DNA from: Thermodesulfovibrionales bacterium
Lineage (GTDB): Bacteria; Nitrospirota; Thermodesulfovibrionia; Thermodesulfovibrionales; SM23-35
DNA length: 64,000 bases
Direction: 5' to 3'
NCBI GenBank assembly: GCA_963753165.1
Contig: CAVWBP010000009.1
Location: 58,013-122,012, forward strand
Position 1 is the first letter of the stretch. Each line of letters opens with the position of its first letter. A program made the position numbers and the translations under genes. The notes beneath the pieces were generated by a model that saw only the letters and a list, made by a program, of their open reading frames with translations, ran no database searches and had not been told where the DNA came from. Shown in pieces: positions 2,886 to 63,320 of the stretch.

Positions 2886-4019
2886 ATGACTTCACACCCT
2901 GAAATAACCTTCCGGAAACCGGCAGATGATACCCTGCTTGTCAGGCTTACGGGCGAGTGGACGCTTCATGAAAAACTCCCTTCCTCTGAAGAAGTGGAAA
3001 AGCAGTGCGAAAAAGACACGGGCATTCAACAGGTCCTTTTTGATCCGGCAGACCTTGCCCGATGGGACAGCGGACTTCTTGTCTTTCTCACAAAGGTTAT
3101 CGATTTTTGCGCACAAAAAAATATCCGGATCGAAAAAGAGAGCCTGCCGCAGGGAGTGCAAAAACTGCTTGCCCTTGCCTCACCCGACAATCAGCGGGAA
3201 GGGATAAGCCGGGGAGCGTCGCAAAAGACTTTTTTGGTAAAAGTTGCTGATGCAACCATTCGCTTCATACAGTCCTCACAGGAAATGCTCGCTTTCATCG
3301 GGGAGGCTTTTCTTGCGTTCATGAAACTGCTGCGGGGAAAAGCCAGTTTCCGTGGTTCCGATCTTCTCATGGTGATCCAGGACACCGGCGCGCAGTCTCT
3401 GCCGATTGTTTCACTGATAAGTATACTGGTCGGATTGATTCTCGCGTTTGTCGGCGCCATTCAACTGGAGCTGTTCGGAGCCCAGATATATGTTGCAAAT
3501 GTCGTGGGGATAGGCATGACGCGGGTTATGGGCGCCATTATGGCCGGTATTATCATGGCAGGCCGCACCGGCGCATCTTTTGCCGCGCAACTCGGCACAA
3601 TGCAGGTGAACGAAGAAATTGATGCGCTCAGGACTTCGGGCATCTCGCCTATGGAGTTCCTCGTCCTGCCCCGCATGCTCGCGCTCACCCTGATGATGCC
3701 GCTCCTCTGTCTGTATGCTGATTTTATGGGCATCCTCGGCGGTCTTTTTGTCGGAGTGACCATGCTTGACCTTAATCTTATGGAATACTACTATCAGACA
3801 CAATCTGCGGTCACGCTGACCCACTTCTGGGTAGGCCTGTTCCATAGCGCAGTGTTCGGCGTGCTTGTTGCGCTCTCGGGATGCCTGCGGGGGATGCAAT
3901 GCGGCAGAAGCGCTTCCGCAGTTGGATATGCCACAACCTCGGCAGTGGTAACCGGAATTGTGAGCATTATCATCGCAACGGCAATCATCACGTTCGGATG
4001 CAATGTGTTGGGTATTTAA
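2886..4019 (+). CDS. MlaE-family ABC transporter permease with N-terminal STAS-like domain
   Basis: 377 aa. A soluble ~110 aa N-terminal domain is followed by a permease core ('MGAIMAGIIMAGRTGASFAAQLGTMQVNEEIDAL'). It is the first gene of a 5-gene Mla/Pqi-like operon. Confidence 0.85.
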   Translation: MTSHPEITFRKPADDTLLVRLTGEWTLHEKLPSSEEVEKQCEKDTGIQQVLFDPADLARWDSGLLVFLTKVIDFCAQKNIRIEKESLPQGVQKLLALASPDNQREGISRGASQKTFLVKVADATIRFIQSSQEMLAFIGEAFLAFMKLLRGKASFRGSDLLMVIQDTGAQSLPIVSLISILVGLILAFVGAIQLELFGAQIYVANVVGIGMTRVMGAIMAGIIMAGRTGASFAAQLGTMQVNEEIDALRTSGISPMEFLVLPRMLALTLMMPLLCLYADFMGILGGLFVGVTMLDLNLMEYYYQTQSAVTLTHFWVGLFHSAVFGVLVALSGCLRGMQCGRSASAVGYATTSAVVTGIVSIIIATAIITFGCNVLGI

Positions 4020-4128
4020 GACATAATACCTCCGCGTTCACGGAGGAGAAGGAAAAAATGGAGAACGTATCGAAAAATTTATTACACCATTCCTTTCTGC
4101 GGAAAGGAATGAATAACCGGGAGCTGTC

Positions 4129-4902: not shown

Positions 4903-5893
4903 GCAAACAGGCAAACAAGACGCTTATCGGAGCGTTCGTCATCGGATCTATTGCCCTGCTTGTAGCTGCTGTCCTTATTCTTGGCGGAGGAAAGTTATTC
5001 AGCAATAAATTCAAGGTGGTGATGTTCTTCGATGGATCGATAAAGGGACTCAATGTCGGTTCTCCCGTGATGTTCCGGGGAGTAAAGGTAGGGACAGTGT
5101 CCGATATCAACCTGATGCTTGACGCCAGGGCCCTGTCCTTTCAAACTCCTGTTGTCGCTGAATTAGACCCGGCGCGATTGGTGCTCACAGGGGGGGTGAA
5201 CGTGACGATCCATCAAGGCTTCAGGCTCTCATAGGCCATGGGCTGAAAGCACAACTTCAGCTGCAGAGCATCGTCACCGCACAGCTCCTGGTCGCCCTGG
5301 ACCTTTTTCCGGACAAACCTGCCCATTTTGTGGGGCTTGTGAAAGAATATCCGGAAATTCCGACCGTTCCGACTTCCCTCGCGGAACTGTCGAAAGCAAT
5401 AGAGGACCTCCCCCTGAAGGAGATTATCATGAACCTGAACAGCGCAATGGACGGTATACAGAAGATCGTCAATGCACCGGAGGTAAAAGAAGATATCCAG
5501 ACCCTCCACCTCACGCTTCAGGAAGCACGCGAACTTATCAGGAATATTGACCAGAAAATCGACCCGCTGATAACAAATTTGAACGCGTTAACTGATGATG
5601 CGCGCGGTTCTCTGGGTCAGGCAAATAACACTCTGTCCGCGATAGAAAAAGAAGCACAGGAAATCGCAACCACGACAAAGAAAACCCTGGAATCCGCACA
5701 GTCCGCGCTCAGAAAGTCTGAAAATGCTTTCGCCACCTTTTCAGACGATTCGCAGCTTTTATTCGAGACCAGGAAAACCCTCAAGGAATTGTCTGCGGCT
5801 GCCCGTTCTCTCCGGGTTCTCTCCGAGTATCTGGAACAGCACCCCGAAGCACTCCTCAGGGGAAAACCTAACCAGGAAGGAGCATCACAATGA
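4899..5893 (+). pseudogene. MCE-domain (MlaD/PqiB-like) substrate-binding protein, reading frame broken once
   Basis: ORF 4899..5234 gives a TM anchor plus MCE domain ('GLNVGSPVMFRGVKVGTVSDI'). The same protein continues in another frame ('LIGHGLKAQLQLQSIVTAQLLVALDLFPDKP...', joining ORF 5330..5893). The switch maps to a G7 run at 5190-5196. Confidence 0.8.
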
Positions 5894-7305: not shown

Positions 7306-7420
7306 ATAATTACTCTAACGCAGAGGTTAAGAAATGTAAAATTCAATTTCCGAATAATTACAAAAATATATAAAGCGTTCACACATCTGTGAGAACTAAG
7401 CGAGCACCAAACCCCTCGCA

Positions 7421-7766
7421 ATGTTTTCGTTTTTAAACCCCTCTCATGTTCAAAATTTCCCAACTAATTTAAGGGATGCAGTGGTATCCCTGCTCTGCAA
7501 AATCCGGGGCGAGCGTAAAGGAGGTTTTTATCCTGAGGGTTTTCATTCCCTGAAAGCTCACTCAATCTGTTTCAGGTTTCATTTATCTTGTGGTATTATT
7601 CTGAAAGATACGCCTGACAACAGAATTCTTGAATGCGCCGGAGGGTGTAAGGCAGATCTGGTTGTAACAGGGGATAACCATCTTCTTTTTGTTGAAGGAA
7701 TTTAAAGGCATCGGCGTTGCAAGGGTCGCAGATTTTTTGCATACTTTTAGAACTGAACCAGCCTGA
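7421..7766 (+). pseudogene. remnant of a PIN-family toxin gene (C-terminal part only, frame broken)
   Basis: The tail 'DTPDNRILECAGGCKADLVVTGDNHLL' matches the usual C-terminal PIN signature. After a T5 run (7686-7690) the next frame reads 'LLKEFKGIGVARVADFL...' to a stop at 7764-7766. No convincing N-terminal PIN half or partner antitoxin was found. Confidence 0.4.
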
Positions 7767-14895: not shown

Positions 14896-14911
14896 TGTTC
14901 CACGTGGAACA
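14896..14911. promoter_or_regulatory. parS-like ParB/Spo0J binding site TGTTCCACGTGGAACA
   Basis: A perfect 16-bp palindrome that differs from the Firmicutes-type parS consensus TGTTNCACGTGAAACA at one position. It lies 47 bp upstream of the uvrA start. Confidence 0.65.
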
Positions 14912-15020
14912 TTTCTCTGAAGGCTTGCCACCAGGAATACAATTGAAACCAGACCTGTCCAAAATGAATTTTTGCCCTGCAATACCCATATTAAGGATAT
15001 GAGTCTATCTATAAGGTCGT

Positions 15021-15105
15021 AGTTTGTCATTCTCCGGCTTGACCGGGGGATACATACCTCATTGAAAAGGCTGGTTTCCCCGATCGAGTCGGGGAATGAC
15101 AAACT
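15021..15105. repeat. inverted pair of REP-like hairpin units (AGTTTGTCATTCTCCGGCTTGACCGGGGGA ... TCCCCGATCGAGTCGGGGAATGACAAACT)
   Basis: Same unit family as 11930-12016, so the two pairs bracket uvrA. The outer 12 nt are perfectly inverted. Confidence 0.75.
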
Positions 15106-15134
15106 TTGGAATAGAGTTATCAATAACGTAAATT
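15106..15134 (+). promoter_or_regulatory. candidate sigma70-type promoter (TTGGAA-N17-TAAATT) in front of repeat copy 1
   Basis: The hexamers and 17-nt spacer are read directly. The predicted start falls at the 5' base of the closing stem. The hexamers are only moderate matches. Confidence 0.35.
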
Positions 15135-15136
15135 AT

Positions 15137-15325
15137 GGATAAGGGATGCAGCTCAATTTCTGAACCGAAATCACGGGTAATCCCGAATAGGCTTTGCCTT
15201 TCGGGACCGAAGACGGAGCGGAGGCCTCAGCTTTCAATACTTCTCTCACATTGAAGTCAGGGAAAGGTTCGCATAGAAACATAGGGAGTTTAGTTCGGTT
15301 CAGAAATTGGGCTGCATCCCTATCC
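15137..15325 (+). repeat. copy 1 of a ~185-nt structured repeat (candidate small RNA or MITE-like element) with a 27-bp closing stem
   Basis: The 5' arm GGGATGCAGCTCAATTTCTGAACCGAA (15143-15169) pairs with the 3' arm TTCGGTTCAGAAATTGGGCTGCATCCC (15294-15320). There is an internal 11-bp hairpin TCCCGAATAGGCTTTGCCTTTCGGGA. The element is followed by TTTATTTTTT (15326-15335). Confidence 0.7.
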
Positions 15326-15397
15326 TTTATTTTTTGAACCGACAACAACGGGGCAATTGTTTTTCGAACAGCGTTGGCACTTTTCGGGTCAAAGAGT

Positions 15398-15417
15398 AAT
15401 GTTCCACGTGGAACATT
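15398..15417. promoter_or_regulatory. parS-like site, 20-bp perfect palindrome AATGTTCCACGTGGAACATT (core 15400-15415)
   Basis: The 16-bp core is identical to the site at 14896-14911. It lies 73 bp upstream of the 15490 ATG. Confidence 0.65.
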
Positions 15418-15489
15418 GCACTATTCAATTGCAGACATTGTAACGATTCATTTAAACTATTGAGAAAACAGATACGGGAGCAATCATTG

Positions 15490-16017
15490 ATGGAAGAGAG
15501 AGAACAGCAGGTAAAAAAGAAAATCATGGAAGAAGTCCAGATTGAGTCCATGCAGCTTATAGGGGTAAAACAGTTGGTCTGGACAGTGCTTCTTGAGGAT
15601 AAAAAGTATGAGCCCGGGGACATTGCCATTGATCCCGAGTACACACTGCAGCTGAGTTCTGGTCAGGCACCAGTCAGCATGGACATGGTTGTCAGGCTTG
15701 CGGGAGTGGACTTTCTTGCCATAAAATGTTCCTCATCGGATATTGAATCCTGGGTACGTTATGTTACGGCATTTGCGCGTGCAGTGAACGATTACCAGAT
15801 GCCCTACACCATGGTAACGGATGGAGAGAATGCGAAGATTATCGACGTCCTGAAAGGAACTCTTATCGGCGAATCAATCTATGATCTTTTTACCCGCGGA
15901 CAGGCCATGGAAAAGATGAAGGACTTTCAGAAAATACCCTGTCCTGAAAAAAGGCTTGAAAGGGAAAAGAGTATAGTGCACGCATTTGAAGGGATCAAAT
16001 GCCCTCTGACTAAATAA
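15490..16017 (+). CDS. HsdR-N-terminal-domain-like protein (PD-(D/E)xK nuclease fold), orphan
   Basis: 175 aa from the ATG at 15490 (the track ORF opens at a TTG at 15460). A nuclease-core-like pattern 'PVSMDMVVRLAGVDFLAIKC' is followed by 'YTMVTDGENAKIIDV', as in stand-alone HsdR_N proteins. No hsdM, hsdS or helicase is nearby. Confidence 0.6.
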   Translation: MEEREQQVKKKIMEEVQIESMQLIGVKQLVWTVLLEDKKYEPGDIAIDPEYTLQLSSGQAPVSMDMVVRLAGVDFLAIKCSSSDIESWVRYVTAFARAVNDYQMPYTMVTDGENAKIIDVLKGTLIGESIYDLFTRGQAMEKMKDFQKIPCPEKRLEREKSIVHAFEGIKCPLTK

Positions 16018-16171
16018 TACGTATATGACCGTGTTAGTTTTTCAGAATCATTCTGTACTTTTCAGGGACTTAAAACCTGAACCGACATGAAACTCTAACC
16101 CGGCCCATCTGATTCATGAGTTTCTTTCATCTATCTCAGAATCAAACCTATTCAATTAATGCAGAACCTCA

Positions 16172-16353
16172 GGGATATGGTTCAATTTCCGAATCGAAAT
16201 CACGGGTAATCCCGAATAGGCTTTGCCTTTCGGGAACCGAAGACGAAGCGGAGGTCTCAGCCATCAAAAGCTTCAATTCACATTCACAGTCAGAGAAAGG
16301 TTTGCACAGAAACAGAGGGAGTTTAGTTCGATTTGGAAATTAAGCCATATCCC
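16172..16353 (+). repeat. copy 2 of the ~185-nt structured repeat, same orientation as copy 1
   Basis: The 5' arm GGGATATGGTTCAATTTCCGAATCGAA (16172-16198) pairs with TTCGATTTGGAAATTAAGCCATATCCC (16327-16353). About 60 nt after the 5' arm are near-identical to copy 1, the central part diverges, and the 3' ~35 nt are conserved. Confidence 0.7.
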
Positions 16354-16519
16354 GATGCCATTCCGAGCAGCATGAGCAAAATTATTCATGGATTCCCGGA
16401 CATATAGTATTGGTTCAATAGATTTACTTGAAAAATTTCTTTTGCAGATTACTAGGTCATGGGGTTTTGTGAAGGGAGGCAGTCCGATGCTTCCTGGCCC
16501 CTGCCTCCCGGAGATAGCC

Positions 16520-16711
16520 TTAATTACAGCGTGGTTCCCATTCGATAATGGTTTTACAGACCGGACACCGCACCATTACCGCCGGCATGCCATAAGGGTC
16601 TTTGCCCTGATCAGTTACATTGCGGACCAGATCATGAATGCCCAGAGTGAAGCTGCAATTCTTGCATACCTGTGTATTTGGAACCGGAATCGTAACAAAC
16701 GGTCTGCTCAT
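16520..16711 (-). CDS. small zinc-ribbon protein (63 aa), function unknown
   Basis: Two CxxC pairs ('CKNC' and 'CPVC'). AAGGAG lies 8 nt upstream of the ATG. A GGAGGCAG...CTGCCTCC hairpin follows the stop. Confidence 0.5.
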   Translation of the reverse strand: MSRPFVTIPVPNTQVCKNCSFTLGIHDLVRNVTDQGKDPYGMPAVMVRCPVCKTIIEWEPRCN

Positions 16712-16898
16712 GGGCTGGTTCTCCTTCTTGCGCTTTATTTATTATATTTATTATTTATATAATATTTTTAAGCTTTTGTCAAACATAAACGCCCTGCTTA
16801 AATAAAATGCTGTTATATCAAATAGTTAGCATGATGGGCAGAACAATGAGAAAAAACAAGGCTGTGCATTGATGAAAAAATCACATAATTGAAAAATA

Positions 16899-28282: not shown

Positions 28283-28380
28283 GGGAGTGTATAGGGCTCT
28301 GGTGTCCCTCTCGGACTTCAAATCCGGTGTTGCCTGTTACAAACGGGCAGGGTGGGTTCGATTCCCACACGCTCCCGCCA
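28283..28380 (+). tRNA. selC: tRNA-Sec (anticodon TCA), CCA encoded
   Basis: Manual fold: 8-bp acceptor GGGAGTGT/ACGCTCCC, 5-bp T stem GTGGG/CCCAC (8/5 bacterial Sec geometry), anticodon loop CTTCAAA, and a 7-bp long variable arm TGCCTGT-TACAA-ACGGGCA. selA and selB are in the same window. Confidence 0.9.
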
Positions 28381-42204: not shown

Positions 42205-43596
42205 TTATGACAAGGCTGTCTTGATTCCTCTCACGAGATGCTCAAAATCCTTTTTCATAATAGTCCGCGCATCGAGTATCAGGGCGTCGTCCTTGATTCG
42301 CGCGATGATTGCAGGGTTCCCTTTTCTTAAACGCTCTTCAAATTCGTTCACGGAAATGGTGTCAGACTGAATCGCAACCGCATAGGTAGGAAGGTCTATT
42401 TCCGGCAGGGCGCCGCCTCCCGCTCTTGAGCTATCGGCTATCACTTGTATCACCGCATTTTTTATCTCTTTCTTCAACCGCCCGGCAATGGTCTTTGCAC
42501 GCTTTTTTATCTCGTCAGGTTTCTGGAGGAGCATTCTGAGGGTAGGAATACGATGGATCACCTCTTCTTCGTCAATATATTCCGACAGGGTCGCTTCAAA
42601 CCCGGCAAGCGTGAGTTTGTCTATCCGCACTGCTCTCGTGATGGGGTTTTTCTGAATCCGCTCAATTTGTTCTTTCTTGCCGACAATAACACCCCCCTGC
42701 GGACCGCCGAGCAGTTTGTCCCCGCTGAATGTCGTAAAATCAACACCGGTCTTTACCACCTCCTGCACAGACGGTTCTATATGCACACCATACGGCCGCA
42801 TGTCAATAAGGCTCCCGCTGCCCAGATCGAACATTACCGGGATGTTCCTGTCTTTTCCAAGCTGAACGAGGTCCTCGATAGAAACCTCATCCGTAAACCC
42901 CATAATCCTGAAATTGGAGCGGTGGATTTTTGCGATAAGCGCAGTATTTTCATTGATCGCCCTCTCATAATCATAGAGGTGTGTCTTGTTCGTCGTCCCC
43001 ACCTCCCGGAGAATCGCTCCGCTTGCAGTCATCACATCGGGTATCCGGAACGACCCGCCGATCTCGACAAGCTCGCCCCGCGAGAGGATAACTTCTCTGC
43101 CTTTCGCAAAGGTGTTGAGGCACAGGAGAACGGCAGCTGCGTTGTTGTTGACGACAAGGGCATCCTCTGCGCCGGTAACCTCCCTGAGGATCCTCTTCAC
43201 ATGGACATACCGTTTGCCGCGCCTTCCTTCGTCGATATCATATTCAAGGTTGGAATAGCTCTCCGAAACCCTCCTGATATTTTCGAGCGCCCGTTCGGAA
43301 AGCACTGACCGGCCCAGGTTCGTATGGATAACCACACCCGTCGCATTAATCAGCGGCCTGAGGCTGTATGAGGAGAGGGTATCGAGTATGCCCTCTATAT
43401 CAGCGACCATTGTTTCCCCGGAGAGATTAACTGTCTTTCCCTCGATGATGTTTTTCCTTCTGATACTGATCCCTTCACGGATTGCCTGGAGAACATACCT
43501 GCGGGGATAATGTTTCACCCATTCAAGCCCCTGTTCGCTTTTCAGGAACTCATCCACAGAAGGCAGGGTTGATAAAAGTTTTTGCTTTTCGTTCAT
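42205..43596 (-). CDS. selA: L-seryl-tRNA(Sec) selenium transferase
   Basis: 463 aa with the PLP-lysine region 'FSGDKLLGGPQGG' and an N-terminal 'LPSVDEFL' SelA-type start. Confidence 0.9.
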   Translation of the reverse strand: MNEKQKLLSTLPSVDEFLKSEQGLEWVKHYPRRYVLQAIREGISIRRKNIIEGKTVNLSGETMVADIEGILDTLSSYSLRPLINATGVVIHTNLGRSVLSERALENIRRVSESYSNLEYDIDEGRRGKRYVHVKRILREVTGAEDALVVNNNAAAVLLCLNTFAKGREVILSRGELVEIGGSFRIPDVMTASGAILREVGTTNKTHLYDYERAINENTALIAKIHRSNFRIMGFTDEVSIEDLVQLGKDRNIPVMFDLGSGSLIDMRPYGVHIEPSVQEVVKTGVDFTTFSGDKLLGGPQGGVIVGKKEQIERIQKNPITRAVRIDKLTLAGFEATLSEYIDEEEVIHRIPTLRMLLQKPDEIKKRAKTIAGRLKKEIKNAVIQVIADSSRAGGGALPEIDLPTYAVAIQSDTISVNEFEERLRKGNPAIIARIKDDALILDARTIMKKDFEHLVRGIKTALS

Positions 43597-46301: not shown

Positions 46302-48182
46302 ATGCGATATATAATCCTTGGCACCGCAGGCCATATCGACCACGGGAAAAGCGCCCTTGTAAAGGCCCTTACGGGAATCGATCCCGACAGGCTGAAGGAA
46401 GAGAAAGAGCGCGGCATCACGATTGACCTCGGTTTTGCAGACCTTACCTATCCCGATGGTCTCACGGTCGGGATCGTGGATGTTCCCGGCCATGAAAGAC
46501 TTGTGAAGAACATGCTCGCCGGCGCCGGTGGCATCGACCTTGTCATTCTCGTTATCGCTGCCGATGAAGGAATCATGCCGCAGAGCCGTGAACACCTCCA
46601 CATATGCAATCTCCTGAAAATCAAATCCGGCCTCATCGTTATCACAAAAGCCGATCTTGTAGAAAACGACTGGCTTGCGCTTGTTCAGGATGAAGCAACA
46701 AACTTTGTAAAAGACACTTTCCTCGAAGGCGCTGAGATTATTCCCGTTTCCTCAAAAACTATGATGAACATTGACCTTCTGAAAGAAAAGATCCATCAGC
46801 TTGCGCTTACCGTCGAGCCGAAGCCCACCAAGGGTCTCTTCAGGCTGCCGATTGACAGGGTTTTTACCTTAAAAGGATTCGGGACGGTAATTACGGGCAC
46901 AGCCGTCTCCGGAAGTATCTCAGTAAATGACGAGGTAGAAATACTGCCGACGAATATTCAAACCAAGGTCCGGGGGCTTCACAGCCATGGCAAAGCAATA
47001 CAGACAGCCTATGCCGGCCAGCGGGTGGCTATAAATCTGCAGGGAGTTGAAAAAGAGGCGTTGAGGAGGGGAGATGCCGTTGTCGTTCCGAAACGATTCA
47101 TTTCCACAAGGAAAATAGACGCAAAGGTTGAATTATTGAAGAATGCTCCGCCCCTGAAGAACAAAAGCCTCGTCCATTTCCACCTCGTCACCTCAGAGAC
47201 CATAGCGCGCGTTATCCTGTACGGGAGAAACGAACTGAAAGCAGGGGAGCAGTGTTATTGTCAGTTCAGACTTCAGGAATCTGTCATCGCCATGTCCGGG
47301 GACCGTTATATCATACGAAGGTTTTCTCCGGTCGACACAATCGGCGGCGGGGTAATCATTGATCCCCTCCCTTTCAGAAGAAGCATGAAAGAAGGTCTCG
47401 ATGACCTGCAGGTCTTCGAAACAGGCACCCTGTCTGATAAAATCGCCATAAAGGTAAAACGGGCCGGGATATATGGAATCTCTCTGTCAGTGATAGAAGG
47501 CTGGATCCAGGCAGAAATTCCTTCGATCAGGAAATCCGTCTCGCTACTCAAAGAGCGCGACATCCTGAAACAGTTTGAAGACTTTCTTGTTCATGCCGAT
47601 ATCTTCGATCAAGCGAGAGAAAAAGCCGTTCGCATTCTCTCCGATTTCCACAAGAAAAACCCCCTGAAACCCGGTATGCCCAAGGAGGAACTCAGGGCCT
47701 TGCTGAAGATCGAACCGAGACACTTCGGCAACTTTATCTCTGCGGTAAAGGAAATAGTGATTGACAAGGAATTAGCCCGCCTTGCCACATTCAGGCTTGC
47801 ATTGTCCCAGGTTGATGAAACAGTCAAAACAAAAATTCTGGAACTTCTTGAAAAATCCGGCTTCCAGCCGCCAACCAGGGAAGAACTCGGCACGTCGCTG
47901 AAGATTGACCAGAAACACCTGACGGATATCCTTAAGCTTATGGCAAAGGAAGGAAGCCTCGTCAGGATCATCGATACGGTCTATGTCACTGCTTCCGTGC
48001 ACCAGAAAATGATCGAGTGCCTGAAGAGCTTCTACTGCAAGAAATCCGATATGACCGTAGCTGAATTCAGGGACATCCTCAACACCACACGTAAATATGC
48101 CCTCCCCTTCCTTGAATACCTCGATTCCAATAAAATTACTCTTCGGGTTGGTGACATAAGGAAATTCCTGCTCAAGGAATAA
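46302..48182 (+). CDS. selB: selenocysteine-specific translation elongation factor
   Basis: 626 aa with GTPase motifs 'GHIDHGKS', 'DVPGHE' and 'TKAD', followed by a long C-terminal winged-helix extension typical of bacterial SelB. Confidence 0.9.
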
Positions 48183-49602: not shown

Positions 49603-49710
49603 CATGACGGATGCGGTATTTTTGCGGATTTATCCCGATTCTTATCGGGATCCCTCGGAGTCCCGAATGCTTTCGGGACGAGAATGAGCAAAAATACCGC
49701 ATCCGTCATG
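49603..49710. repeat. 108-nt three-helix palindromic element in the yacL-like/ispD spacer
   Basis: A perfect 23-bp closing stem CATGACGGATGCGGTATTTTTGC (49603-49625) pairs with GCAAAAATACCGCATCCGTCATG (49688-49710). It encloses two 8-bp hairpins, ATCCCGAT-TCTT-ATCGGGAT (49632-49651) and GTCCCGAA-TGCT-TTCGGGAC (49660-49679). Confidence 0.75.
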
Positions 49711-62221: not shown

Positions 62222-63320
62222 ATGCTTTTGCAGAATGAAATGAAAGAAGAGTTATGCGCTCTCAGGAACAAAATAGAGGCTTTAAGAGGTTATCTTTGAT
62301 GTAGACCTGCTTCGCGAAGAATTAAAAAAGATCGAAAAAGACCTCACGCAGGAAACTGTCTGGTCATCTCCAGAACTTTCCAGGGTTCTTTTAAAGAAGA
62401 AGTCAAAGCTTGCAGATATTACAGGACAGTTTGATGCGCTCTCTGAAAAACTCTCCTATCTGGAAGAATCCATAGGGATTCTCGATGAAGAGAGTGGGAA
62501 CCTCTTTCTGGGCGACCTGCAAATCGCTATCAGGGAACTCAAAGAAGACCTTGATATTCTTGAAATTCAGAACCTCCTCTCAGGCGAGATGGATAAAAAT
62601 AATGCTATCGTAATCATTCACCCCGGAGCAGGCGGTACAGAGAGTCAGGATTGGGCCCAAATGCTCATGAGAATGTATCTGAAATGGGCTGAAAAACATC
62701 AGTATACCACCCAGATTATTGAATTACAGACAGGAGAAGAAGCAGGTATCAAGAATGCTACGTTAACCATTTCCGGTCCCTACGCATACGGGTATCTGAA
62801 AGCAGAGGCAGGGGTACACAGACTGGTCAGGATCTCTCCGTATGATGCAAATAAAAGGAGACATACCTCGTTTGCAGCCCTGCTCGTATATCCTGAAGTT
62901 GAGGAAGATATTGAAGTAGAATTAAAAGACGACGATATCAAGACAGATACTTTCAGGGCATCCGGCGCCGGAGGACAGCATGTCAATAAGACTTCTTCTG
63001 CAGTAAGGCTTACCCATATTCCCACAGGAATTGTGGTGAGTTGCCAGAATGAACGTTCCCAGTATAAAAACAAGGCAATTGCCATGAAGATCCTCAAATC
63101 ACGTCTCTATGATCTCAAGATAAAAGAACAGGAAAAAAAGATGGAGGGGTTTGTCGGCGATAAAAAGGGTATTACGTGGGGCAATCAGATACGATCCTAT
63201 ATTTTACAACCCTATCGCATAGTAAAAGATCATAGGTCAGATATAGAGACAGGGAATGTTGATGCTGTTCTGGAGGGGGAAATAGATAACTTCATCAAAT
63301 CCTATCTTAAGAAAAAATAG
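62222..63320 (+). CDS. prfB: peptide chain release factor 2 (join 62222..62296, 62298..63320)
   Basis: The +1 frame after codon 25 reads 'DVDLLREELKKIEKDL...' through 'SGAGGQHVNKT' (GGQ) to the stop at 63320. The RBS is AAGGAGGA. Confidence 0.92.
62285..62300 (+). promoter_or_regulatory. prfB programmed +1 frameshift cassette (SD-like AGAGGT, TAT CTT TGA T)
   Basis: An in-frame TGA at 62297-62299 follows 25 sense codons. CTT TGA is the canonical slippery/stop context, and the SD-like element lies 3 nt upstream. Confidence 0.85.

Follow-up and report, generated by a model that had tools for sequence, protein, structure and literature searches.

How do the two arms of a long hairpin stay complementary while their sequences change? 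The question is raised by two direct repeats in a 64,000-nucleotide (nt) stretch of DNA from a Thermodesulfovibrionales bacterium (phylum Nitrospirota; contig CAVWBP010000009.1, positions 58,013 to 122,012), which we call the window. The repeats, W1 (15142-15321) and W2 (16171-16354), lie on the same strand, on either side of an HSDR_N_2 gene, and each begins and ends with arms that can pair to form a long stem. A sequence-only reading of the window had located both of them, at positions where we also find them, and had proposed that the stem is maintained by selection on a folded RNA. We found that W1 and W2 belong to a previously undescribed family of non-coding, palindromic, interspersed repeats that resemble MITEs (miniature transposable elements with inverted repeats) and REPINs. 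With moderate confidence, we attribute the paired changes in the stem, and the flipping of the sequence between the arms, mainly to template switching from arm to arm.

We scanned one genome per species for an exact 19-mer from the core (the arms and the interior between them). True copies turned up only in two Thermodesulfovibrionales metagenome-assembled genomes (MAGs), one of which has 8 copies. A gapped pattern of three conserved blocks, scanned against metagenomes, gave 25 contigs. A profile search of all fetched sequences with nhmmer yielded 37 full-length copies, of which 35 are distinct. (One additional copy is broken up by a different hairpin repeat.) This bears out the earlier suggestion that the repeat is dispersed. 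The family, with at least 35 distinct copies, was found only in Thermodesulfovibrionales MAGs and in sediment metagenomes. All of the copies are intergenic, and their cores are 164-184 nt long.

As the sequence-only reading had also stated, the repeat matches no named RNA class: Rfam gave no match for the window at the gathering score, for the region at E values of up to 10, or for eight variant-B loci (see below) at E values of up to 1. A blastn comparison to the plasmids in PLSDB had no match either, and a pattern scan of IMG/VR gave only chance matches to the pattern, among which nhmmer confirmed no copy. No reading frame is open across the copies, and on this ground we rejected a small protein. 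When we searched for proteins with the translated core, we found only 17 tiny hypothetical open reading frames (ORFs), which come from JGI metagenomes and from one Thermodesulfovibrionales MAG at NCBI, so no protein-coding version of the element is visible.

The interior of the core comes in two forms. In variant A, the core is about 180 nt and includes the hairpin TCCCGAATAGGCTTT(A)GCCTTTCGGGA. In variant B, the core is about 165 nt and has the short segment YYTCGATGAG instead. We considered whether variant B (CYCGATGAG...) might be hammerhead-like and rejected this: the CUGAUGA box has an extra base, the helix is not followed by GAAA, and Rfam has no match. Some orthologous copies differ by a clean swap of this module (a 26-nt A hairpin for a B segment of about 10 nt) and are nearly identical in the rest of the core. 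Examples are L008 versus L039, L009 versus L026, and the window's W2 versus L006 5184-5349 (L numbers refer to contigs). A module that differs between orthologs points to exchange between copies, which suggests gene conversion among the dispersed copies.

The repeat extends beyond the stem. Sequence outside the stem is conserved between unrelated loci and is asymmetric. The order is an outer arm (ATCATTGC-TGTCCAAAATATTCAGG), a 28-bp repeat, the interior of about 125 nt, the inverted partner of the 28-bp repeat, and another, longer outer arm (GGTTCTTGCAG-ATTGAAAT-...TATTTYGGACAG). Of the 21 occurrences of the outer motif, 19 are within 120 nt of a core, and the two distant matches are in coding-looking sequence that lacks the outer-arm architecture. 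Because the outer motif is found almost exclusively beside cores, it is part of the repeat, rather than an independent target site, and the full unit is about 245 nt.

Paired changes in the stem and inversion of the interior

Block by block, W1 and W2 are 81-91% identical (about 85% overall). We paired their arms position by position and tallied the differences by hand. There are 6 differences on the 5' side and 8 on the 3' side. Together these amount to five double changes that preserve Watson-Crick pairing (G-C to A-T, C-G to T-A, A-T to G-C, T-A to C-G, and C-G to T-A), three further changes to or from G:T, and one C:A mismatch. This tally agrees exactly with the earlier one.

The same is true of the family as a whole. 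We computed stem statistics from a MAFFT alignment of the 35 distinct copies, which was not fitted to any structure. In this alignment, 95.3% of the stem cells are paired, and double-sided changes occur at 24 of the 28 pairs. None of 500 shuffles reached the observed values, and sliding the partner by 1-3 columns lowered the pairing to 28-53%. These controls indicate that the covariation is genuine and extensive. Thus the claim that the stem is kept by paired changes, which was made from two copies, extends to the whole family.

The character of the stem is unusual for an RNA helix. Most cells are Watson-Crick pairs (91.6%), with 3.6% G:T, 2.0% A:C, and 2.8% transversion mismatches. In the stem, orthologous copies are separated by as many as 8 double changes, often at adjacent positions, and these include transversion types (AT>CG and TA>AT) that have no route through a wobble intermediate. 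The outer GGGAT and the inner AATTTCCGAATCGAA of the arms are conserved, and the middle is hypervariable. (The arm sequence AGGGATACAGCTCAATTTCCGAATCGAA is free of internal palindromes.) The stem shows a weak strand bias. The sequence-only reading had argued that the G:T pairs single out the plus strand as the folded strand; this holds for W1 and W2, but as a family-wide signal it is weak (35 G:T cells versus 19 A:C cells). Relative to shuffled sequences, the plus strand folds with z = -8.6 for W1 and -6.4 for W2, and the minus strand does nearly as well (z = -9.3 and -4.4).

The interior is also found in both orientations. Across the family, about half of the copies have the core in each orientation relative to the asymmetric flanks. 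We identified orthologous pairs by comparing them from flank to flank, and at four independent loci, the flanks are colinear and the core is in the opposite orientation. In the cleanest case, L019 versus L038, the two loci align colinearly through the flanks and both 28-bp arms, and the 125-nt interior alone is reverse-complemented. The W2 site is itself among the four loci: the window, L006, and L043 share one orientation, and L028 has the other. (At this site, L006, L028, and L043 have an S-type outer arm where the window has the L type.) Orthologous pairs with flank identities of 95% or more all agree in orientation, and the inversions were seen at flank divergences of 7-20%. The copies lie in 9 divergent, 15 tandem, and 1 convergent spacers, and the core shows no bias for being sense or antisense to the neighboring genes (6 versus 9). 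The weak wobble bias, the transversion double changes, and the inversion of the interior at four loci all speak against the view that the paired changes were caused by selection on a hairpin in RNA.

Template switching, which acts on DNA during replication, is known for this combination of effects. In published work, the arms of short inverted repeats are homogenized, and the spacer is inverted, by template switching between them (PMC8604942). Template switching also yields multi-base compensatory changes in stems (PMC8794818). We propose that the 28-bp arms of a resident copy would pair during replication and that the polymerase would occasionally switch templates between them. A switch would carry a mutation from one arm to the other, and the result would look like a compensatory double change, often a multi-base change or a transversion. 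A switch could also invert the spacer. This would account for the near-perfect Watson-Crick stems, the transversions and adjacent double changes, the weak strand bias, and the inversion polymorphism, and it would suffice without selection on an RNA. If so, the covariation in the stem would mainly be a side effect of how a long inverted repeat mutates, and not proof of a selected RNA.

The uvrA locus and neighboring features

At the locus in the window (Table 1), the sequence-only reading had the two repeats bracketing an orphan gene. However, the HSDR_N_2 gene has 45 clusters of homologs, at 43-97% identity. (An exact look-up of the window's protein found no record, and sequence searches of NCBIfam and PDB were empty.) Contigs L028/L035, L040-L042, L043, and L044 are orthologous to the uvrA region of the window, and the gene stays divergent beside uvrA in relatives that lack W1 (L028 and L044) or both copies (L040-L042). 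Because the gene is conserved and has a fixed place, it cannot be called an orphan, or a cassette with the repeats as its boundaries.

Table 1. Features of the region between uvrA and the end of W2, in window coordinates.
Feature	Positions	Strand	Remarks
Left copy of the 17-nt direct duplication TGTTCCACGTGGAACAT	14896-14912		Flanks the W1 segment; contains a perfect 16-bp palindrome
W1 segment, 487 nt	14913-15399		W1 plus the unrelated hairpin repeat at 15021-15105 and outer-arm motifs
S-type outer-arm motif TGTCCAAAATGAAT...	14956-14975	+	Parted from W1 by later insertions
W1 core, variant A	15142-15321	+	28-bp arms 15142-15169 and 15294-15321, 96% complementary; interior 124 nt
Block ATCACGGGTAA	15170-15180	+	Near-invariant in the family; kept in 8 of the 9 copies that were found without it as a pattern
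Variant-A module, hairpin TCCCGAATAGGCTTTGCCTTTCGGGA	15181-15206	+	Replaced by YYTCGATGAG in variant B
Conserved block GRAGACGRAGCGGAGGYCTCAG	15209-15230	+	Loop and 3' side of the 6-bp helix GAGACC/GGTCTC
Conserved 3' interior block (T)AGGGAGTTTAG	15282-15293	+	Adjoins the 3' arm
Degenerate right outer arm of W1, ATCCTTTATTTTTTGAACCGACAAC (cf. CCTGAATATTTTGGACAGCAA)	15322-15346	+	Contains the T-run
Right copy of the 17-nt duplication TGTTCCACGTGGAACAT	15400-15416		
HSDR_N_2 (PD-(D/E)xK-like) gene	15490-16017	+	Conserved chromosomal gene, divergent from uvrA, outside the repeat
Left outer arm of W2, L type, ...TATTCAAT-N5-GCAGAACCTC	16131-16170	+	
W2 core, variant A	16171-16354	+	27-nt arms 16172-16198 and 16327-16353, 89% complementary

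The copies themselves come and go at this locus. The W1 segment is present in the window, L006, and L043, and it is precisely absent from L028/L035, L040-L042, and L044. The relatives without it have a single copy of the 17-mer with nothing in between. At the W2 site of L040-L042, the stop codon of the HSDR_N_2 gene runs directly into a conserved hairpin; the window has about 480 nt of sequence derived from repeats between the two. W1 is 80.6% identical to the W2-site copy of L028, with which it shares the arm haplotype, versus 73.8% to the window's own W2, and the W1 segment repeats part of the flank of the L028 W2-site copy. Given this similarity and the shared flank, W1 may have arisen locally, as a copy of the W2-site element.

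The 17-nt duplication includes a perfect 16-bp palindrome, TGTTCCACGTGGAACA, in the spacer from which uvrA and the HSDR_N_2 gene diverge. The relatives have one copy of this palindrome, and the W1 segment doubles it here (14896-14911 and 15400-15415). Given the adjacency to uvrA, the palindrome is a candidate SOS (LexA-type) operator, and uvrA and the HSDR_N_2 gene may each have their own copy of it now. This neighborhood gathers copies of the repeat: L044 has three within 5 kb (112-281, 3854-4024, and 4905-5058), and in L031 a copy (310-478) lies 95 nt upstream of a uvrA homolog. Beyond W2, a 63-amino-acid ORF on the minus strand (16520-16711) corresponds to the gene that is called downstream of HSDR_N_2 in L040-L043, and the conserved hairpin GGGAGGCAG...CTGCCTCCC (about 16475-16512) precedes it. 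The 124-amino-acid ORF on the plus strand (16388-16762) is probably not a gene.

Could W1 be a stand-alone small RNA with its own promoter and terminator, as had been suggested? The proposed promoter scores 8/12, which is under the threshold of our scan, and it is sited in a flank that is unique to W1. Promoter-like sites in the region are no more common than in shuffled sequences. The T-run that was taken for a terminator is part of the conserved outer arm, and the orientation of the core relative to neighboring genes is unbiased. We therefore do not retain this suggestion.

Nor do the other relatives that had been proposed within the window belong to the family. The partial copies at 7342, 7471, and 16054 are matches of 12-14 nt at chance level (E = 0.1-1.5, with scores inside the range of shuffled sequences). 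The element at 49603-49710 belongs to a different hairpin family, with its own perfect 22-bp terminal repeats (ATGACGGATGCGGTATTTTTGC...GCAAAAATACCGCATCCGTCAT), and has only the TCCCGAA/TTCGGGA mini-hairpin (7+7 nt) in common with W1 and W2. In L006, L028, and L043, relatives of that element lie immediately to the right of the copy at the W2 site. At 7468-7490 of the window, TAAGGGATGCAGTGGTATCCCTG resembles the outer 10 nt of both core arms joined together and lies in a divergent spacer. It may be what is left of a copy whose interior is gone.

Yet another hairpin family is represented at 15021-15105, within the W1 segment (AGTTTGTCATTC...GAATGACAAACT, with 28-nt arms that are 86% complementary). 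It has relatives at L006 988-1074 and inside a core in L011 (about 2908-3087), and the insertion into a core implies that the hairpin families nest into each other.

Otherwise, the window is ordinary chromosome, with genes for an aminoacyl-tRNA synthetase, Opp and Mla transport, uvrA, tRNAs, bioB, PAS kinases, selA/selB, purA, and prfB. The selenocysteine machinery is clustered within 20 kb: tRNA-Sec is at 28283-28380, selA is at 42205-43596 on the minus strand, and selB is at 46302-48182 on the plus strand. The prfB gene (release factor 2) has its programmed +1 frameshift site, CTT TGA, at 62285-62299, with AGAGG before it, and the downstream frame continues as the ORF 62589-63320.

Weighing the explanations

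How would copies reach new sites? We think that a copying process that is hairpin-based, single-stranded, or associated with replication would fit better than a DDE transposase, because there are no target-site duplications and no sharp ends, the palindrome is doubled at the W1 site, and copies cluster (as in L044). We looked in all 37 copies for direct repeats of at least 4 bp around the ends of the core, at offsets of up to 4 nt either way, and found none; nor is one visible at the ends of the outer arms. This agrees with the sequence-only reading, in which the repeats were not a plain cut-and-paste MITE. We ran an all-against-all blastp of the ORFs around the copies, and it grouped orthologous neighbors only, with no recurrent gene. 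The 40 largest ORFs of the window include no transposase, recombinase, or integrase.

Several points weigh against template switching as the explanation for the stem, or against the mobility of the family. In the stem, G:T cells do outnumber A:C cells (binomial p = 0.04, with cells that are not independent). In the interior, the CGGG in the ATCACGGGTAA region pairs with the YYYG that follows it in all 35 copies, with 24 changes from G-C to G-U, no other variation, and no mismatches. This would suit a folded plus strand. (A loop position beside this 4-bp helix also varies between C and T only, so transition bias may explain the signal.) Conservation is higher in the blocks ATCACGGGTAA and GRAGACGRAGCGGAGG than in the arms, and this is also true of 9 copies that were found without these blocks as patterns. 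Neutral decay does not predict such conservation. It is partly an ascertainment effect, since 25 of the 35 copies were gathered with patterns containing these blocks. We think that the interior blocks are probably recognition sites for a mobilizing factor or a host factor. As for movement, we found no mobilizing enzyme, donor form, or sharp element ends; our view that the family is mobile comes from its dispersal and from the presence or absence of copies at sites, and the W1 polymorphism could reflect either the insertion of the segment or its deletion between the 17-nt repeats. Finally, we infer template switching from the overall pattern of changes across the family.

The signals in the interior raise the alternative that the core is a small structured RNA gene, or an RNA module that is processed from a longer transcript at the 28-bp stem. 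The plus strand would fold, and the covariation would reflect selection on that fold. The very strong pairing of the closing stem, the modest excess of G:T over A:C, the fully paired mini-helix, and the highly conserved interior loops all fit, as do fold z-scores of -6 to -9. So does a 6-bp interior helix, which occurs in two compensated variants (GAGACC/GGTCTC and GAGGCT/AGCCTC). But the stem's support is confounded by homogenization of the arms at the DNA level, the interior helices scarcely vary, and the G-U signal of the mini-helix has the alternative explanation just given. The minus strand folds almost as well, the core is inverted in place, and its orientation relative to genes is unbiased. 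Furthermore, a stem with 92% Watson-Crick cells, and with transversion double changes between orthologs, is hard to reach through wobble intermediates. There is also no Rfam match at permissive thresholds and no conserved promoter, with promoter-like sites at chance. On balance, we consider an RNA of this kind to be unlikely.

Inversion in place could instead mean that the copies are invertons, in which a site-specific recombinase flips the 125-nt segment between the 28-bp repeats and so regulates the adjacent genes. (In Bacteroides fragilis, Mpi does so at many promoters.) At the four orthologous loci with both orientations, the breakpoints are inside the repeats, and across the family, each orientation accounts for about half of the copies. 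The copies are mostly in spacers that bear promoters, and the segment and the repeats are conserved, as the sites for a recombinase and its accessory factors would be. On the other hand, we saw inversions only between loci with 7-20% divergence of the flanks; the pairs at 95% identity or more have the same orientation. We found no recombinase near any copy or among the large ORFs of the window, and the segment has no conserved sigma-70-like promoter (our scan was at chance, and other promoter types are outside its reach). Spontaneous template switching already gives both the inversion and the homogenization of the arms. Invertons therefore seem somewhat less probable still than a structured RNA.

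A broader form of these ideas is that the core is a functional module that was spread by a mobile repeat, either as a new class of structured RNA of about 170-180 nt, cut out at the 28-bp stem, or as a set of invertible switches across the genome that are sited upstream of genes. We rate this as improbable, on a par with the RNA gene. If it were true, ATCACGGGTAA and GRAGACGRAGCGGAGG would be functional sites, and in the case of a switch, flipping would pick which strand or which neighboring gene is served, including at the uvrA/HSDR_N_2 pair. Taken jointly, a functional RNA module or a recombinase-driven switch is still a minority prospect, though a more substantial one than either by itself.

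We give even less weight to an ordinary MITE that is moved in trans by a DDE transposase acting at its terminal repeats, such as a derivative of the Tn3 family (a TIME). In its favor are the terminal inverted repeats (of 27-28 bp), the small size, the lack of coding capacity, and the many dispersed copies, along with the conservation of the outer GGGAT and inner AATTTCCGAATCGAA in the arms. A TIME would have Tn3-type repeats of about 38-40 bp at both ends. The left arm together with ATCACGGGTAAT may resemble the Tn3-family repeats (GGGG...ACGAAAA.CACG.TAAG), but the Tn3-like inner part is at one end only, the duplication test failed, and the middle of the arms is hypervariable. No transposase was found near the copies, among the window's 40 largest ORFs, or by the protein search with the translated core, and there is no similarity to PLSDB plasmids. 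TIMEs make 5-bp duplications (PMC4133298), and we saw none at the ends of the cores or of the outer arms.

Last, two structured repeats on the same strand, 1 kb apart and around one small gene, might be integron attC-like sites that bound a mobile HSDR_N_2 cassette. The orthologous loci refute this, since the gene remains beside uvrA in relatives without W1 or without both copies. Most members of the family are solitary and next to unrelated genes, our inspection of the W1/W2 region found no RYYYAAC or GTTRRRY core sites, and the window has no integrase. We give the cassette virtually no credence.

The family is a worked example of how textbook compensatory covariation in a long stem is not by itself evidence of a functional RNA: its copies also have the inverted spacers and the transversion-type double changes that point to template switching between the arms. 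For annotation, the family is new to Thermodesulfovibrionales, whose genomes have three or more families of hairpin repeats that nest into each other and remodel spacers that bear promoters. The spacer between uvrA and its divergent neighbor, where a palindromic candidate operator is duplicated, is an example. And if the conserved interior is functional, nature would have supplied, in this family, a system of modules that can both move and flip.

Comparison with known systems

Correia elements in Neisseria and ERIC (or IRU) sequences in enterobacteria are imperfect palindromes, about 100-180 bp long and ending in repeats of about 26 bp, and they occur in hundreds of intergenic copies. Their internal modules can be present or absent, they occur in either orientation, and when transcribed, the hairpin affects the mRNA. 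Unlike our family, Correia elements have terminal repeats of fixed types and make a duplication of a TA target. Neither Correia nor ERIC elements are known for in-place inversion of the interior or for such conserved, asymmetric outer flanks.

Invertons, such as phase-variable invertible promoters, are also similar in some respects. They are segments of about 150-250 bp between inverted repeats, with many copies per genome that share both the repeats and inner sequence, and they lie upstream of genes in both orientations. In our family, the repeats are longer (28 bp) and vary between copies, and the orientations were compared between diverged strains or species. TIMEs share the size (about 200-260 bp), the long terminal repeats that start with GGG, and the lack of coding capacity. 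But TIMEs have 5-bp direct repeats (PMC4133298), of which there are none at the 37 copies of our family, and the possible resemblance to a Tn3 repeat is at one end only.

The short inverted repeats at which template switching (or quasipalindrome correction) has been described match the family in the homogenization of the arms, the multi-base compensatory changes, and the inversion of the spacer (PMC8794818 and PMC8604942). Template switching is a mutational mechanism, however, and not a family of elements, and it is silent on how copies spread and on why the interior blocks are conserved.

REPINs, which are hairpin-forming doublets of REPs that RAYT tyrosine transposases mobilize, differ from our family in several ways. 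The arm of a REPIN is a palindromic REP of about 20-25 nt, whereas the arms here are not palindromes themselves. The unit here is about 245 nt, versus about 100 nt for a REPIN, and it has strongly conserved interior blocks. Also, we could link no RAYT gene to our family, and no recurrent gene adjoins the copies. Nevertheless, REPINs, like the repeats described here, are extragenic, non-coding, dispersed hairpins without target-site duplications, and for both, a single-stranded hairpin is the presumed active form. Compensatory changes are common across the hairpins of REPINs as well (PMC3116915).

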